Made by a program: the position numbers and the translations under genes. Positions 11,356-64,000 of a stretch of 64,000 bases of DNA are shown here, piece by piece. The notes under the pieces were generated by a model. The model ran no database searches and had not been told where the DNA came from. It saw only the letters and a program-made list of their open reading frames with translations. The first letter of the stretch is position 1. The number at the start of each line of letters is the position of its first letter. The DNA comes from a bacterium (GTDB lineage: Bacteria; Patescibacteriota; Minisyncoccia; Phycocordibacterales; UBA2100), in NCBI GenBank assembly GCA_016789445.1, contig JAEUQT010000002.1, forward strand, positions 227,857-291,856, written 5' to 3'.

Positions 11356-11988
11356 ATGGCCATACTCACCAAAGACGAAATACTCGCTCGTGTAAAAGAG
11401 GGGAATCTGGGCTTTTCGCCGAATCTTGATCAATTCCAGATCCAAGCGCACGCCGTCGATCTCCGATTGGGATTCACGTTCCTTCTGCCGAAATCGTGGC
11501 GCATGACGAAAGAAGGAAGAGAGGCGATGATGATCGATCCTCTGCGTGACCACGGCCCCGAGTATTTTGATGTGATCGAATTGGAGCAGGGGCAGTCGTT
11601 CGATCTGTTGCCGCAGGAATATGTCTTGGTGTCTACATTTGAGACCGTGCGCATTCCCGACGATCTTATGGCGGTGTTGTATCCACGCTCGTCGGTCAAT
11701 CGTAAAGGCCTTTCCGTCGACCTCACCGGCATCATCGATAGTGGCTACGAAGGACCGCTCACGCTCCCGATCCGCAACAACACGCGATCCCAAGTCATTC
11801 AGCTCCATCCGGGTGAGCGCATCTGCCAGGTTGTCTTTGAAGAACTGAAGCATCCGGTGAACGCGCGCAAGAGCCGCTGGCATCAGAAGGACGTCGTCGA
11901 GAAGGGGAAGAAGGAGAAGTCGAAAGAAATGAAACTGGTTTTCTCGGGAGACATCAAGAAGCTGAAATCCGATTTCAAGGCTCTGTAG
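11356..11988 (+). CDS. dcd: dCTP deaminase
   Basis: dUTPase-fold motifs SSVNRKG and GIIDSGYEGPL. Length 210 aa. Confidence 0.85.
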   Translation: MAILTKDEILARVKEGNLGFSPNLDQFQIQAHAVDLRLGFTFLLPKSWRMTKEGREAMMIDPLRDHGPEYFDVIELEQGQSFDLLPQEYVLVSTFETVRIPDDLMAVLYPRSSVNRKGLSVDLTGIIDSGYEGPLTLPIRNNTRSQVIQLHPGERICQVVFEELKHPVNARKSRWHQKDVVEKGKKEKSKEMKLVFSGDIKKLKSDFKAL

Positions 11989-11989
11989 T

Positions 11990-12487
11990 ATGGCCCGTGT
12001 CAGTGCTATCGCCGCAATCGGACGCAATCGCGTTTTGGGCAAGGATAATCAGCTGCTTTGGCATATTCCTGACGACCTGAAGCGTTTTAAGGAGATCACC
12101 TCCGGCCATCCCATCATCATGGGTCGCAAGACATTCGAGTCGATTCTCGCGTCGCTCGGGAAGCCTCTGCCGGGGCGCACGAATATCGTCGTTACTCGGG
12201 ATGCTTCGTGGCAGCATGAAGGCGTGCTTACTGCGGCGTCGATTGAAGATGCTATCATGAAAGCCGCAAAAGCGCCGGGAGCGGATGAGGTTTTTATCGG
12301 CGGCGGCGGCGAGATCTATCGCCAGGCGCTTCCATTTACCGACCGGCTGTATCTCACACTCATCGAGGACGATAAGGAAGGGGATTCGTTCTTTCCGGAA
12401 TATGAGAATGAATTTACGAAGGTGGTTTCGGATGAGACTCGAGAGCATGAAGGGCTGAAATACCGCTGGGTGGATTTGGAACGTTGA
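11990..12487 (+). CDS. folA: Dihydrofolate reductase
   Basis: IAAIGRNRVLG, IIMGRKTFESI, FIGGGGEIY. Confidence 0.9.
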   Translation: MARVSAIAAIGRNRVLGKDNQLLWHIPDDLKRFKEITSGHPIIMGRKTFESILASLGKPLPGRTNIVVTRDASWQHEGVLTAASIEDAIMKAAKAPGADEVFIGGGGEIYRQALPFTDRLYLTLIEDDKEGDSFFPEYENEFTKVVSDETREHEGLKYRWVDLER

Positions 12488-25350: not shown

Positions 25351-26699
25351 AGCGTTGCGCGTCCGATGCCGGAGTAGTGCACGCCGCTTTCGAGGAAATC
25401 TTCTTTTCGCAGGCAGTTGCGTCCATCGATGACGATGCCGACGCCGCTGCGCATGAAGTGGAACGGGGTGAGCGTGCGGAATTCGCTGTGATCGGTCGCG
25501 ATGAGCGCCGCATCGGCATCCTGTAAGGCTTCTTCCAGCGAATCAACGGTGGAATGCTCGGGGACATGCGGGTCGTAGATACGGACGACCGCCCCGCGTT
25601 TCTCGAGGATGTCGCGGATGGCTTCAGCAGGGCTCTCACGCATGTCCGGCACATCGCGTTTGTACGCCACACCGAGGAGGGCGACGGTCGAGCGGGAAAG
25701 CTGCTTACGCTTCCGACGCAGGGCCTTCGAGAGCATGCTGACCGTGTAATGCGGCATGCGGTTGTTGATCGAGCGTGCCGTGATGAGGAATCGATGCATG
25801 AAGCCGTTCTTCTCTCCGTAACGGATGAGATAGTACGGGTCTACCGGAATGCAGTGGCCGCCGACGCCGGCACCCGGGAAGTGGGGCATGAACGCGAAGG
25901 GTTTCGTGGAAGCACCGCGGATGACATTGACGAGATCGATGCCCGCGCGGTCGAACGCCATCGCGAGCTCGTTCACGAACGCGATATTGATGTCGCGGAA
26001 TGCATTCTCAACCATCTTCACGGCCTCGGCCTCCTTGAGGGTGTTCAGCGGCAGTATCTGAGCATCGACGAGCTGCTCATAGAGCGCTTGCGCTTTCTCA
26101 AGCGATGCGGGACCTGCGCCGCCGATGACGCGCGGAATGCTGCCGACCGCCCACTTCGAATCTCCGGGATTGATGCGTTCCGGGCAGTGCGCGAGGTAGA
26201 AGTCACGCTCGACCTTGAGACCGCTCTTTTCCAATATCGGAAGGACGACTTCTTCGCATGCGCCGGGGTTCACGGTCGATTCGACGATGACGAGATTCCC
26301 GCGGCGGAGGGCTTTCGAGACGATATGTGATGCACCTTCCAGCGGAGCAAGATCCGGTTCATATCCGTTCACCGGTGTCGGTACGCAGATGATGAATACA
26401 TCTGCTTCCTTGAGCTTCGATTCACTCATGGTCGCGGTGAGTATCTTCGTGCGTGCGAGCTCTGCTTGTTCCTCGGGGGTGATATACGCGACATCGCCGC
26501 TGCGGATGGATTCTATCTTCCGGGTATCGATATCAAACCCGATGACCGGGAATTCACGTGTTGCGGCACGGATGGCGAGTGGCAAGCCGACATACCCGAG
26601 GCCGATGACGGCGATGGTAGTGGTCTCATGCGAGGAAGGGGATGCTACGGATGTCCGATCTTCAGTATGCGGAATCGGTTCGAGGGTCTTTTGTATCAT
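25347..26699 (-). CDS. Nucleotide-sugar dehydrogenase (UDP-ManNAc/UDP-GlcNAc 6-dehydrogenase family)
   Basis: N-terminal Rossmann IAVIGLGYVGLPLA. Catalytic Cys region GGHCIPVDP. Dimerisation and C-terminal domains present. Confidence 0.85.
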   Translation of the reverse strand: MIQKTLEPIPHTEDRTSVASPSSHETTTIAVIGLGYVGLPLAIRAATREFPVIGFDIDTRKIESIRSGDVAYITPEEQAELARTKILTATMSESKLKEADVFIICVPTPVNGYEPDLAPLEGASHIVSKALRRGNLVIVESTVNPGACEEVVLPILEKSGLKVERDFYLAHCPERINPGDSKWAVGSIPRVIGGAGPASLEKAQALYEQLVDAQILPLNTLKEAEAVKMVENAFRDINIAFVNELAMAFDRAGIDLVNVIRGASTKPFAFMPHFPGAGVGGHCIPVDPYYLIRYGEKNGFMHRFLITARSINNRMPHYTVSMLSKALRRKRKQLSRSTVALLGVAYKRDVPDMRESPAEAIRDILEKRGAVVRIYDPHVPEHSTVDSLEEALQDADAALIATDHSEFRTLTPFHFMRSGVGIVIDGRNCLRKEDFLESGVHYSGIGRATL

Positions 26700-26844
26700 G
26701 GTAGTGCGCGCACATATGCGGAGAAATGAGCTTGTAATACAAGCTGCCCGTTACTCGTGATGACGATCACGACGCACATCAATTACTTCATGAGTGCTGT
26801 GTGAGATTTCGGGTTACGAGCTGGATGCCGGCGCAGCTGGCGGC

Positions 26845-26937
26845 GAAAGGGGTCGGGAAAACTGTAGTTTTCCCGTGTCGGAGAGCAGGTCGGCGAGCGA
26901 AGCGTAGTCGACCGTTGAGAACCGAGGGTTCTCAAGG
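26845..26937 (+). ncRNA. Unclassified three-hairpin RNA-like element, copy A (recurs at 63784-63866)
   Basis: H1 cgggaaaac-tgta-gttttcccg. H2 ggtcg...cgacc. H3 ttgagaa-ccgaggg-ttctcaa. Compensatory changes relative to copy B. Lies in a 540-bp non-coding, highly self-complementary region. Confidence 0.45.
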
Positions 26938-27239
26938 AGGGGTGTGCAACAACCCCGACGCGCCGGGAGGGCCGTCGCACTCGTGCGTACAGCCCTCCCG
27001 GCTCATTCCCTCACATTCAGGGATGTCTCTCCCTCAGACTCCATATCCCTATTCATTACCGAAGTTTTGCTTCGTGCATTTCTAACTTTGCAGCTTGTTA
27101 TGGACCGCGCTCAGGCGGGCCGTCTACCCGCACGCCCAAGCCCAGATAGGCGCGGGCGCGCGGGTAAAGAACCAAACTACGATCATGCTATCGAGGAGCG
27201 ATGAATTGAACATGAAAGATTTCGGATTTCCTTCATATT

Positions 27240-28424
27240 TCAGATCTTGCGATGGGAATAGTCGACCGCGACTTCGTCGAAGAAGTTCTTATCACGCAGT
27301 GACGGTGCTGGTTCCGGAATCGCCGCGAGCGGAAGCGAGACAACCACGGTCGTTCCGCGACCGACCGCGCTGCGGACGGTGATCTTGCCGTGATGGAGGC
27401 GCACTAATTCGGAGACGATGGCGAGACCGAGTCCTGAGCCGCCTTTTGCGCGGTTACGTGACGGCTCCGCCCGATAGAACGGCTCGAAGATGTGGAAGAG
27501 ATCTTGCCGTGCAATGCCTGCCCCGGAATCGTTGACGACGATTTCTACATGCGATGCGCCGATCTGCTCGGCGACAACGGAGATCGTACCGCCGCGCGCG
27601 GTGTAATTGATGGCGTTCTTAACCAGATTGGTCAGGATCTGCTCGAGAGCAGAGTAGTTGCCCAGCACGTAGCATGACTGTGCCACCTTCGTACTTACCT
27701 CGAGGTTCCGGAGCTTCGCGAGTCCGTCTAGTTTGCGGACGACATCCCCGATCACGCTGCCGACGTCTATCGGTTTGAATTCGATGCGTTCCGGTCGCAC
27801 GGAGGCCGAGAGCGAGAGAAGATTATTGATGATGTCTGAAAGACGATCCAGCTCTTCAACGGTGCTCTCGAGCGTCTTGCGGGTTTCCGATGAGACGGTC
27901 TCGCCAAGGAGAGTGACTTCCGTGTTCGTCTTGATGATGGAGAGCGGTGTGCGCAGCTCGTGGGCGATATTACCGATGAATTGCTTCTGCGACGAGAGCG
28001 CATTTCGCGTAGGGGAGAGCGCGACGCGGGTGAGAAGGTAGCCGAAGGCGACGGTGGCGGTGGCCGTTATGACGGCGATGGCTGAAAGATTGTCCGATCG
28101 GATGTCCTCCAAGGCGGGCACGCTGCCGGAACTTCCGCCACCCATGAGGATGCTGTCGCGGACACCGGTGACGATCGCCAGCGAGATATCGTGGTAGAGA
28201 TAATCCACCAAGATCCCGATGAGGGCGAGCAGGAAGACCGAAAACGCGACAAGCATCCCGATCACGTTGATCTGCGTACGCAGGAACGGATCGAACTGGT
28301 ACTTATCCGCGAAGCCGGTAACCGATGCCGCGAACCGTTTCCAATATGCTTGGATCTCCTCCTTGAGCAAGCTTCCTTCGAAGATTCTTGACATGAACAT
28401 CGACGACGTTACTGAACGACTCAT
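27240..28424 (-). CDS. Sensor histidine kinase (2 TM, HisKA + HATPase_c)
   Basis: H-box IAHELRTPL. N-box LVKNAINYT. G-boxes DSGAGI and GGSGLGLAIV. Confidence 0.85.
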   Translation of the reverse strand: MSRSVTSSMFMSRIFEGSLLKEEIQAYWKRFAASVTGFADKYQFDPFLRTQINVIGMLVAFSVFLLALIGILVDYLYHDISLAIVTGVRDSILMGGGSSGSVPALEDIRSDNLSAIAVITATATVAFGYLLTRVALSPTRNALSSQKQFIGNIAHELRTPLSIIKTNTEVTLLGETVSSETRKTLESTVEELDRLSDIINNLLSLSASVRPERIEFKPIDVGSVIGDVVRKLDGLAKLRNLEVSTKVAQSCYVLGNYSALEQILTNLVKNAINYTARGGTISVVAEQIGASHVEIVVNDSGAGIARQDLFHIFEPFYRAEPSRNRAKGGSGLGLAIVSELVRLHHGKITVRSAVGRGTTVVVSLPLAAIPEPAPSLRDKNFFDEVAVDYSHRKI

Positions 28425-28977: not shown

Positions 28978-29346
28978 ATGGTAGTGATTTAGGGTTGCTA
29001 ACGCGCACTGCACGGCGTCATGACCTTCATAAGAGCGCCGAACTCACTGGTCTAACCATATACCGGCACTGATTAAGCTTTCATGAAGAACCTCTTCATC
29101 TAACGACGGGGGAGGGGGATAGGTCTTACAATGGCTTAAAATAAGGATTTTATGGCATCATGCCCAATCACGCATGCATCGCTGCTGCGATGTTGCGCGA
29201 CCCCGCCTCGGCGCCAAGCGCTTCCGGCCTTGCGACGGGGCCCCACCCCCGTCTCACGCTTCACTCCCGCTTAATCCCGCCTCTTCATAATCCTAGGTAC
29301 CACGCGCAACCGTGGCATGTACCTATTATCGGTTATCAATCACTCA

Positions 29347-33353: not shown

Positions 33354-33490
33354 GGATATGAAAAAATGGCGCGAGGCGGGTGAGAAAGCGCAGTGCGCTT
33401 TCGCAAGGGCGCAGGACTGGTCCGAGCCGGGACCGCACAAAATCGCAGCAGCGATTTATGTGTGGTCGCGCAATTTTTCAGCAGAAAAAT

Positions 33491-57602: not shown

Positions 57603-58112
57603 CTACGAACGCTTAAATACTAACTGTTGTCGCGTTTCTACGCGAAAATCGTCAACGCTTCGATCTGGTGTAAAAATTGCACTCCCTGACAATTGTTTCC
57701 CTCCATTTGCGACACGTAGAAGAAAGGCTCCCGTACCAGTGCGGTCTTTTCTTTGCGCCGAATATGTAAACAAAAGATAATTGTCACGAATTTCACCTCG
57801 TAAAGTGAAGTAGTTTGAATAAATTTCCTCTTCACCTGCAGTAGTTTTTGCAAAAAAAGTGCCAGTTACCTCATGAGCCTTCTGTTCAAGATCTAGGGAA
57901 ACCTCGAATGTCATGCTCTTGGTCGGGGAAACTTGGGTTGTCTGTTTATGGCTCCAATTGCCATCAACTTTAACCCCTCGATATACAAGGTGTCGAAACC
58001 AAGGGAGTACCACTCGACCAAAGAACACGGTCGCAAGACCTAGAATTACAGCAGTTATGATGCCGCTTGCGATCCCGATTAATATTGAAATCGAGACCTC
58101 CAGGATATTCAT
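57603..58112 (-). CDS. Membrane-anchored orphan protein encoded in a low-GC islet next to tRNA-Asn
   Basis: 169 aa. N-terminal TM ISILIGIASGIITAVILGLATVFF. About 42% GC versus about 58% for the rest of the window. Confidence 0.5.
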   Translation of the reverse strand: MNILEVSISILIGIASGIITAVILGLATVFFGRVVLPWFRHLVYRGVKVDGNWSHKQTTQVSPTKSMTFEVSLDLEQKAHEVTGTFFAKTTAGEEEIYSNYFTLRGEIRDNYLLFTYSAQRKDRTGTGAFLLRVANGGKQLSGSAIFTPDRSVDDFRVETRQQLVFKRS

Positions 58113-58113
58113 G

Positions 58114-58185
58114 CTCCGCGGGTAGGACTCGAACCTACAGCCAACTCGTTAACAGCGAGCTGCTCTACCATTGAGCTACCGCGGA
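58114..58185 (-). tRNA. tRNA-Asn (anticodon GUU)
   Basis: Cloverleaf: acceptor TCCGCGG/CCGCGGA. D-arm GCTC-AATGGTA-GAGC. Anticodon loop CTGTTAA. T-arm GTAGG-TTCGAGT-CCTAC. Discriminator G. No encoded CCA. Confidence 0.9.
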
Positions 58186-63275: not shown

Positions 63276-63468
63276 GATGACCTCCTCGGCACTGACCGCA
63301 GCTTTACCCGCTGGGTATCAGTGATCCGTACTATCATCCCACCTCGATGCGTGACGCCGCCGCATTGGTAACGAAACGTCTCCGCATCGCATCGCAGGCG
63401 TCCCTGCGATGTAATCTCTGCAGCCACTATATCCATGGTTTTTTCACATGCAAGGGTAGAATGGAGGT

Positions 63469-63768
63469 ATGCGACACATCGGTGCATCACTGCGACAGAG
63501 CCGCGCACGTATCCGCGAGACCGAACGGGGCGAGCTCATGACGTACTTCAAGGACCGTCTGAATGCCTCGCGACAGCGTGACGGCCTCGAACTCATCACG
63601 ATGCCGCGCATGGGAAAGATTCTGGAAGGCATCCCGACGAAAGATCTCTACTATCTGAAGCGCGTCTGTGATGATGCGGGTAATTTCAGTAAAAAGTTCT
63701 GGTGGTTGTTGGATCCAAGAAAACACGAGGAGACATCAGATGGCAAACGGATCCTCCCACGCGAATAA
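63469..63768 (+). CDS. Small hypothetical protein (99 aa) ending FWWLLDPRKHEETSDGKRILPRE
   Basis: GGAGG 7 nt upstream of the ATG. A tagaat -10-like element lies upstream. The C-terminal 23 aa recur at 63869-63940. Confidence 0.45.
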   Translation: MRHIGASLRQSRARIRETERGELMTYFKDRLNASRQRDGLELITMPRMGKILEGIPTKDLYYLKRVCDDAGNFSKKFWWLLDPRKHEETSDGKRILPRE

Positions 63769-63783
63769 GAGAGACCAGAACGG

Positions 63784-63866
63784 GAAAGGGGTCGGGAAAA
63801 CACCTTGTTTTCCCGTGTCGGAAGGCAGGTCGCTTGCGACCGTTGGAAAACCGAGGGTTTCCAAGG
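63784..63866 (+). ncRNA. Unclassified three-hairpin RNA-like element, copy B
   Basis: H1 cgggaaaac-acctt-gttttcccg. H2 ggtcg-cttg-cgacc. H3 ttggaaa-accgaggg-tttccaa. Confidence 0.45.
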
Positions 63867-63940
63867 GGTTCTGGTGGCTACTCGACCCGAAGAAGCACGA
63901 GGAAACATCCGACGGAAAGCGGGTGCTACCGCGAGAATGA
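63815..63940 (+). CDS. Possible short ORF or paralogous 3' gene fragment ending FWWLLDPKKHEETSDGKRVLPRE (GTG start speculative)
   Basis: The last 24 codons differ from the upstream copy almost only at synonymous positions. The 5' boundary is unknown. Confidence 0.25.
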   Translation: MSEGRSLATVGKPRVSKGFWWLLDPKKHEETSDGKRVLPRE

Positions 63941-64000
63941 GTGGACAAAGTCAATTTGTGGGGTATAGTATTTTCCGGTTAAGTCAGTTGCAGGAGGGAA

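Follow-up and report, generated by a model that had tools for sequence, protein, structure and literature searches.

The question raised by this locus is what an almost identical hairpin-forming sequence is doing in two unrelated places of a small genome, once in a long intergenic gap and once inside the end of a gene. The sequence, hereafter called element E, occurs twice in a 64,000-nt stretch (the window) of contig JAEUQT010000002.1 (assembly GCA_016789445.1, positions 227,857 to 291,856, forward strand) from a bacterium of the Patescibacteriota. It had been described from the window alone, in what is hereafter called the original prediction, as a structured RNA element with covariation. 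The comparisons reported here tip, by no wide measure, towards another answer, namely that E is a lineage-specific mosaic hairpin repeat of Kaiserbacteria-type Patescibacteria which moves at the DNA level, resembling repetitive extragenic palindromes (REPs) and bacterial interspersed mosaic elements (BIMEs) or miniature inverted-repeat transposable elements (MITEs). At four of six independent loci E appears to have arrived together with a foreign gene end, which now lies beside the native one.

Recurrence and predicted fold of element E

The 18-mer GAAAGGGGTCGGGAAAAC occurs exactly twice in the window, at positions 26845 (copy A) and 63784 (copy B), against a chance expectation of 0.06, and GTTTTCCCGTGTCGGA is matched exactly in both copies alike. 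A covariance model of E (R1) scored the two copies with 102 and 93 bits (Table 1) and found no other copy in the 64 kb, the next match (22 bits) overlapping copy A. The recurrence of a sequence of about 85–93 nt, as originally described, is therefore real.

E is 85–95 nt long and folds as three hairpins, which form the minimum-energy RNA fold of copy A. All three are likewise predicted on both strands by RNA folding, and with DNA parameters the hairpins dominate both strands (z-scores -3.9 to -5.5). From 5' to 3' the copy A core consists of the tail GAAAGGGGT, hairpin 1 (9 bp), the conserved linker GTGTCGGAGAGCA, hairpin 2 (5 bp plus an extension containing GCGAAGC), hairpin 3 (9 bp, loop GAG) and CAAGG. 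RNAalifold also proposed a closing helix (5' GGGUC with GACCC, GGCCU or ACCCC), which would give a four-way junction.

Pairwise alignment agreed with the hairpins as they had been described. The arms of hairpin 1 are identical in the two copies and the loops differ (TGTA in copy A, ACCTT in copy B); in hairpin 2 the GGTCG/CGACC stem is kept, with a loop of 16 nt in copy A and CTTG (the predicted CUUG tetraloop) in copy B; and the double substitutions in hairpin 3 are compensatory, an A-T pair being turned into G-C and a G-C pair into A-T. Copy B also has one bulged A there. Over all copies, hairpin 2 is closed by a GNA triloop (GTA, GAA), by CTTG or by an insertion with GCGAAGC. Loops of these types are classic, very stable mini-hairpin motifs of DNA and are equally possible in RNA.

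The conservation is not protein-like, as had been claimed, because the hairpin-3 swaps alter encoded residues and the indel in the hairpin-1 loop shifts the frame. The supporting statement that the indels are not multiples of three holds for the hairpin-1 loop and the hairpin-3 arm (1 nt) but not for the hairpin-2 loops, which differ by 12 nt. A protein-coding E was rejected on these grounds even though four of its six frames are open, and the four translated frames, joined as one query, had no match among 5.8 billion proteins. Directly 3' of hairpin 3 lies GGAGGGG or GGGGTTC, which had been taken for a Shine-Dalgarno-like sequence; it serves no credible open reading frame (ORF) and is rather a recurrent motif of the element, RGGGGT, located 5' of a hairpin.

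The statement that no known RNA family can be assigned was upheld. At the gathering score of Rfam 15 the sole match in the whole window was the tRNA at 58114-58185, and scans of both E regions at E-values up to 10 gave chance-level matches only (at most 20 bits, far under the thresholds), with no match to an omega RNA or bridge RNA. ARAGORN found no tRNA or tmRNA in 26600-27400 or 63400-64000. No terminator-like site (GC-rich hairpin followed by a T/U tract) was found near copies A and B, and no promoter-like site adjoins either of them.

Table 1. Positions of copies of E and of its sister element E2, and of the parts of the copy B unit. Coordinates are those of the window unless a locus (L number) is given.
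Feature	Position	Strand	Evidence and context
Copy A, whole inserted block (~137 nt)	26821..26957	+	Missing from syntenic L143 and L144; boundaries approximate
E, copy A core	26845..26939	+	R1 102.1 bits, folds, alignments
E, copy B core	63784..63868	+	R1 92.6 bits; CTTG hairpin-2 loop, compensated hairpin-3 changes
99-aa conserved hypothetical gene	63469..63768	+	480 homologs; 172-bp unit sits in its 3' end
H1, 3' end now used by the 99-aa gene, FWWLLDPRKHEETSDGKRILPRE + stop	63697..63768	+	Probably foreign, arrived with E
Spacer of 15 nt, H1 stop to E	63769..63783	+	Part of the 172-bp insert
H2, displaced native 3' end, FWWLLDPKKHEETSDGKRVLPRE + stop	63869..63940	+	Out-of-frame fragment downstream of E
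E2 copy	29155..29257	-	R2 109 bits; upstream of response-regulator gene
E2-type copy	33380..33478	+	R2 80.1 bits; not in model building; between GPI-like and glycosyl hydrolase family 1 genes
E2 copies outside the window	L142 2257-2360; L131 2571-2675
E copy, L013/L131 (among the matches listed)			Between Mur ligase gene and penicillin-binding protein (PBP) transpeptidase gene
E copy, L127/L130 (among the matches listed)			Upstream of fusA
E copy, L129 (among the matches listed)			Between murJ and lepA-like GTPase gene, upstream of the latter
E copy, L132 (among the matches listed)			Between 81-aa gene and DUF5671 gene

Copies of E at other loci

Further copies of E were obtained from one metagenome scan and one genome scan and lie, among the matches listed, at four other loci (Table 1). 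The pattern used for the genome scan was loose and gave mostly chance matches in GC-rich genomes, and true copies in GTDB genomes were probably missed. The E cores at these unrelated loci of other Patescibacteria are 90–95 % identical to copy A, compared with about 77–83 % DNA identity for orthologous or neighbouring genes of related genomes.

In six independent copies hairpin 1 (9 bp) is invariant and three of 27 pairs have changed on both sides, these being found in the hairpin-2 extension (GC/GC, AT/AT, GC/GT) and in one hairpin-3 pair. Wobble pairs and mismatches single out neither strand. A search beyond the window, which the original prediction had recommended, did reveal copies at other loci, and their stems proved almost invariant. 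The covariation is consistent with the predicted structure, although its signal is weak, and invariant stems combined with variable loops are what recently copied DNA would look like. As E is 90–95 % identical at unrelated loci and its stems are almost invariant, recent spread fits better than long-term structural selection.

Relative to the genes, E lies in sense orientation behind them in copy B, L132 and L134, and in antisense orientation in copy A (with respect to the dehydrogenase gene described below), L127, L129 and L131. All contigs of the Logan assemblies with that dehydrogenase gene end inside hairpin 1 of copy A, which indicates repeat-like behaviour, as assemblies break at repeats.

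Duplicated gene ends flanking E

The most telling feature of E, which the original prediction did not include, is found in its flanks. At four of the six independent loci E is flanked by direct duplicates of a gene end, which are about 72–75 % identical and have diverged mostly synonymously. The genes concerned are the 99-aa gene at copy B, fusA (L127), the gene of a lepA-like GTPase (L129) and a DUF5671 gene (L132). In the orientation of E the layout is the same in all four cases, X - H - spacer - E - H' - Y, with H and H' the two gene ends.

At copy B the 99-aa gene ends in H1, and a second version of its 3' end, H2, follows E (Table 1). Those homologs of the gene that carry a name belong to Candidatus Kaiserbacteria, Paceibacterota, Minisyncoccia or 'Patescibacteria group', and on this basis the window is assigned to a Kaiserbacteria-type bacterium. 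H1 and H2 are 72 % identical, with 15 of the 20 differences at third codon positions, and encode the duplicate peptides FWWLLDP(R/K)KHEETSDGKR(I/V)LPRE; they have the 10-nt core GTTCTGGTGG in common (63696-63705 and 63868-63877), and the duplication stands out from shuffled flanks with z=18. The C-terminus of the closest ortholog (P0001, 95 % identity) is exactly the H2 peptide, and at its locus (L133) the gene and its stop codon are followed by DNA like that after H2, without E. The orthologous loci L140 and L141 also have the gene without E. Identity to L133 is 79 % for H2, 72 % for H1 and 83 % for the gene body. Since H2 equals the C-terminus of P0001, is closer to L133 and is contiguous with native-like downstream DNA, H2 would be the native end, and H1 with its stop codon, the 15-nt spacer and E the insert. 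A promoter-like site at 63942-63969 lies downstream of H2, within the sequence resembling the L133 downstream DNA.

The copy B structure is identical in six independent Logan assemblies (L001-L006) and is therefore no assembly artefact; the fusA locus, too, was found twice (L127 and L130). A 66-aa 'gene' called across copy B (63740-63940; L001 10272-10472) is a read-through of copy B into H2 and very likely spurious. Behind another ortholog of the 99-aa gene, in L134 (2740-2935; L134/L135), a diverged E-like hairpin region with an R1 score of 11.6 bits was observed, and the C-terminal extension of this ortholog reads into GGAAAGGGGTCGGGAAA, which equals the first 17 nt of E. This region may be a copy in decay or else a distant variant occupying the same locus.

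The flank duplications at the other three loci also exceed those of shuffled flanks (z = 16 for L127, 6.2 for L129 and 7.8 for L132). In L127 a 17-codon duplicate of the fusA start is followed by reversed E and then by intact fusA; 13 of the 17 codons differ, but only one residue does. The ORF formed by the old fusA start and E ends in a TGA that overlaps the ATG of the new fusA (ATGA), so that translational coupling of fusA could still be possible. A phage Mu Gam-like gene (L127 1277-1828) lies just upstream of this unit. In L129 the murJ stop codon is followed, after 10 nt, by a fragment encoding MSSNIRNFSII, reversed E, 46 nt and the intact lepA-like gene (MSSNIRNFSIIAHIDHGKST), and every difference between the duplicates is synonymous. 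The fusA and lepA-like duplicates both end at highly conserved P-loop codons. In L132 the repeat around E, of 26 nt or more, takes in a terminator-like hairpin as well as the 3' end of the DUF5671 gene. E meets the native fragment right behind the GGGT motif in copy B, L127 and L129, and directly behind CAAAG in L132. By its position 10 nt from the murJ stop the L129 fragment would be the native copy; codon usage points weakly to the same for the L127 fragment but is not significant against a within-gene null.

Because the fragments still encode the protein sequence although about 25 % of their nucleotides have diverged, the two copies of each gene end would have evolved in functional genes of different lineages. 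An old, since diverged target-site duplication is thereby excluded, as a non-functional fragment would not then be expected to keep 21 of 23, 16 of 17 and 11 of 11 residues, and so is the pair of repeats of a diversity-generating retroelement, since the differences between H and H' are synonymous third-position changes and not adenine-specific. The flanking repeats (30–70 nt, diverged and of coding origin) are also unlike short, identical target-site duplications.

Integrative elements targeting either end of a gene (5' or 3') have as their hallmark direct repeats of the gene end, with the foreign copy restoring the gene. Direct repeats together with an element-borne gene end that restores the gene were found in copy B, L127 and L129. 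The units might accordingly be scars (attL-attR, resembling the remnants known as CIME) of larger integrative elements targeting gene ends, from which the body and the integrase have been deleted. The Gam-like gene upstream of the L127 unit and a strain variant (L003) with a large serine recombinase element elsewhere in the genome would also be in keeping with such an origin. We regard it as quite improbable, however, as it requires three or four independent deletions, each leaving exactly the same ~100 nt of E, and places one near-identical E with four different target genes, although integrases are site-specific. Further, E occurs without a duplicated gene end in copy A and L131, and it is absent from the virus and plasmid collections: three scans of 2.9 million viral contigs gave 0 matches, and the phage and plasmid collections gave none, on which grounds a phage or plasmid origin of E was rejected as well. 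The inserts are 172–200 bp long and have no credible ORF, hence no integrase or recombinase of their own.

The position of the native gene end directly behind E, and the recoding of the functional copy at nearly every synonymous site, also suggest a guide RNA. E would then be a scaffold like that of omega or bridge RNAs, H' the guide directed against unoccupied alleles, and the recoded H the protected copy, the whole being a natural homing drive with a rescue copy. The fusA and lepA-like junctions at the same highly conserved P-loop codons would agree with this. It is nonetheless the least credible of the explanations and very improbable: no common motif precedes the targets (AAAG, CGAC, GCGC, TAAG), the scaffold would be short (85 nt) and without the Rfam matches mentioned above, no target is duplicated at copy A and L131, and homology-directed repair alone would leave no H'. 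Genes for TnpB, IscB, Cas proteins or IS110 were not found by Pfam among the approximately 40 ORFs of the window.

The site of copy A in related genomes

Related genomes in which the UDP-GlcNAc/UDP-glucose-type dehydrogenase (UGDH) is 82–84 % identical (L142, L143 and L144) share the gene order around copy A: response regulator, histidine kinase, a long gap, the dehydrogenase, glycosyltransferase and deacetylase. For the histidine kinase product no database record was found. Within the gap a block of about 280 nt and about 100 nt upstream of the dehydrogenase start are conserved, with a short variable spacer between them. The spacer holds the block of ~137 nt with E in the window, nothing in L143 and L144, and another insert of ~126 nt, belonging to the sister element E2, in L142. 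In the copy A block the core is preceded by a 5' extension (26821-26844) and followed by the 3' extension AGGGGTGTGCAACAACCCCG, which contains an RGGGGT motif and a small hairpin; since the relatives differ in the flanking spacer, the limits of the block are approximate. From the empty sites in related genomes both copies in the window are taken to be insertions.

The long GC stem (gccgggaggg...ccctcccggc) that had been noted in the same gap does not belong with E. It is part of a separate block, 26958-27237 on the minus strand (L142 1961-2258, L143 2079-2376, L144 2075-2372), which is also conserved in relatives without E. This block is non-coding and about 280–300 nt long, and lies in the gap between the histidine kinase and dehydrogenase genes. 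It has 86–90 % identity over aligned positions, with long stretches of 100 %, compared with 79–82 % in adjacent coding DNA. It forms several long hairpins, in which one pair is compensated (CGAAG/CTTCG versus CGGAG/CTCCG), and there are invariant G-U pairs in agreement with the minus strand. The block had no match in Rfam and is a candidate for a novel leader or small RNA.

The sister element E2

A covariance model of E2 (R2) was built from three copies, the L142 insert, the L131 copy and that at 29155-29257 of the window. E2 is approximately 100 nt long and also has three hairpins, in the order hairpin - GCAAGG - variable hairpin - GAGG.GGGGTC - long hairpin. In the three copies 12 of 31 pairs have changed on both sides, and an invariant G-U pair favours one strand.

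E and E2 are connected in several ways. E2 takes the site of copy A in L142, and in L131 DNA homologous to E2, and likewise to the L142 insert, directly follows E. In L127 and L129 E has a 3' extension of 22 nt (CAAGG, variable hairpin, GA.G..GGGT), which includes the GGGT of the junction and matches the middle of E2. Behind the E2-type copy at 33380 lie more hairpin modules, one of them with a CCGAGGG loop as in hairpin 3 of E. The modules common to both elements are RGGGGT 5' of a hairpin, CAAGG 3' of a hairpin, the CCGAGGG loop, and GNA or GCGAAGC mini-hairpin loops. Judged from these alignments, E and E2 are mosaics of a few modules, punctuated by RGGGGT(C) before and CAAGG after the hairpins.

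Repeat family or RNA gene

The original prediction of a structured RNA element was accurate as regards the hairpins, the non-coding character and the lack of an Rfam family, but a discrete RNA gene is supported only in part. On this explanation E would be a true structured RNA, encoded by a small RNA gene or acting in cis as a leader or trailer, with the hairpins and the conserved linkers doing the work, and its patchy distribution would result from horizontal transfer of a useful module. The three stable hairpins with conserved single-stranded linkers, the possible four-way junction, the compensated changes of the hairpin-2 extension and of copy B hairpin 3, and the strong covariation of E2 with its G-U pair favouring one strand are as expected of an RNA, and E lies reverse-complemented in gene leaders at four loci (fusA, lepA-like, UGDH and Mur ligase). 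We consider it unlikely all the same. E is in sense orientation at three loci and antisense at four, copies A and B have neither promoter nor terminator, the near-invariant stems pick out no strand, Rfam gave no match, and E is present in one and absent from another close relative at both window sites. Taken together, the empty sites, the near-identity at unrelated loci, the two orientations, the modular relatives and the lack of promoter and terminator fit a repeat family better than a stand-alone RNA gene. Any RNA produced from E would most simply result from passive co-transcription.

Comparison with known repeat and integrative elements

Extragenic hairpin repeats are already a known kind of element, and E and E2 show the palindromic intergenic units, both orientations and mosaics of the REP/BIME type, with the exception of copy B, located inside a gene end which the imported copy rescues. 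Like the REPs and BIMEs of enterobacteria and pseudomonads, which are associated with REP-associated tyrosine transposases (RAYTs), E is a short, protein-less unit, composed of modules and co-transcribed with its neighbours. RAYTs recognise GTAG-REP, a hairpin with a short 5' motif, and E and E2 also have a conserved motif immediately 5' of a hairpin, although this is RGGGGT instead of GTAG. E further differs in having a fixed series of three different hairpins instead of a single palindromic unit, in lacking a RAYT among the ORFs of the window, and in its copy number, which is apparently far lower than the hundreds of REPs per genome; two E and two E2 copies were found within the 64-kb window, and the contig breaks suggest that there are more.

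E shares with MITE-like repeats (Correia, RUP, ERIC, the RPE of Rickettsia and the mycobacterial MIRU) and with palindrome-associated transposable elements (PATEs, derived from IS200/IS605) a size of 0.1–0.2 kb, strong structure and strain-specific insertion polymorphism. ORFs are read through both, and the stop/start overlap in L127 is MIRU-like. Unlike these elements, E has no conserved target tetranucleotide and no partner transposase among the window ORFs. It does not have the inverted termini of a MITE, its ends being direct (5' GAAAGGGGT, 3' GGAGGGGT), and in contrast to PATEs its hairpins have differing 5' flanks (ggc, cgg, ttc, gtg, ttg, atc). Nor does E resemble an integron attC site, as the three hairpins are separate and without RYYYAAC and GTTRRRY core sites, only the copy B junction having G|TT. 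An IS91-type GTTC target was rejected, as it fits copy B alone.

The gene-end integrative elements, such as the dusA-specific islands, the integrative and conjugative or mobilizable elements (ICE/IME) of streptococci and CIME remnants, share with the E units the direct repeats of a gene end and the imported copy that keeps the gene intact. They differ from E in that its insert is only about 170–200 bp and carries no integrase, and that one E occurs with several target genes.

Mobile GC clusters are found in mitochondrial genomes. Repetitive hairpin-forming elements of mitochondrial genomes are the subject of a separate report (PMC2800124). Like E, these mitochondrial elements are short and GC-rich, have repeatedly invaded intergenic regions, maintain their structure and encode no enzyme; they belong to another genetic system and have no sequence relationship to E.

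No description of extragenic hairpin repeats in Patescibacteria was found in the literature searched. We know of no REP that arrives with a diverged duplicate of the neighbouring gene end, and, to our knowledge, attached gene ends that have diverged synonymously are unreported for MITE-type elements as well.

A possible mechanism, and points against the repeat reading

From the layout of the loci E behaves as mobile or exchangeable DNA. The arriving unit would consist of a stretch of donor DNA on the 5' side of E together with E itself. The 3' side of E would be a fixed junction, whereas the 5' side would carry a variable length of donor DNA, leaving a direct duplicate behind. The unit may have been a small circle, or a one-ended product of excision or nicking, whose re-insertion took place by a crossover inside the homologous gene end or at its border. 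In an insertion inside a gene end the gene is kept whole by the imported copy. For copy B the predicted circle junction is ...CCAAGGGG joined to TTCTGGTGGTTGTTGG, and the predicted empty-site allele is ...AAAAAGTTCTGGTGGCTACTCG. More speculatively, the site of hairpin plus RGGGGT might be cut in single-stranded DNA by a trans-acting, HUH/RAYT-like or other putative recombinase.

It is conceivable, although we give it only a modest chance, that E and the gene end form a new kind of miniature integrative unit. Such a unit would be about 0.17–0.2 kb long and protein-less, would use conserved sites in housekeeping genes (P-loop codons), would bring a recoded replacement end, and would be mobilised in trans at the RGGGGT-plus-hairpin site or by RNA-guided homing.

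Several observations weigh against a DNA-level mosaic repeat. The compensatory changes in hairpin 3 of copy B, in the hairpin-2 extension and in E2 indicate that the structure itself is under selection, which is also compatible with a functional RNA. L142 and L143 encode the same dehydrogenase protein, yet differ in the spacer, which has been replaced between them and not cleanly inserted into, and exchange by ordinary homologous recombination through the conserved flanks could explain part of the pattern. At the E loci examined neither terminal inverted repeats nor a clear target-site duplication or a common target sequence was found, and comparison of the flanks revealed no duplicated gene end in copy A and L131. 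Pfam identified no transposase (including Y1), recombinase or reverse transcriptase among the window ORFs. Finally, all comparisons rest on a small sample of about seven independent E loci and four E2 loci.

Other variation around the window

Two differences between assemblies were observed apart from E. In L003 (1-4657), from another Sequence Read Archive (SRA) run, a segment different from that in L001 and the window abuts the tRNA at 58114-58185, the boundary being at window position 58112. Besides small ORFs it carries the genes of a helix-turn-helix (HTH) protein and of a large serine recombinase (529 aa), and it probably represents an integrated element for which the population is polymorphic. 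L001 has an extra ORF of 181 aa between the mreB-like and DUF1153 genes (11890-12435), which other assemblies of the same species do not have.

Significance for Patescibacteria

The genomes of Patescibacteria, or Candidate Phyla Radiation (CPR), are small and usually called poor in repeats and mobile DNA. Elements of the E type break short-read assemblies and yield spurious small ORF calls, as in the 66-aa example. A mosaic hairpin family varying from one close relative to the next would provide a new marker for gene flow and recombination in the CPR, and the attached gene ends would be direct footprints of DNA from related species in housekeeping genes such as fusA and the gene of the lepA-like GTPase. 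If a dedicated mechanism does exist, E with its gene end would be the smallest known unit that integrates and replaces the end of a gene.

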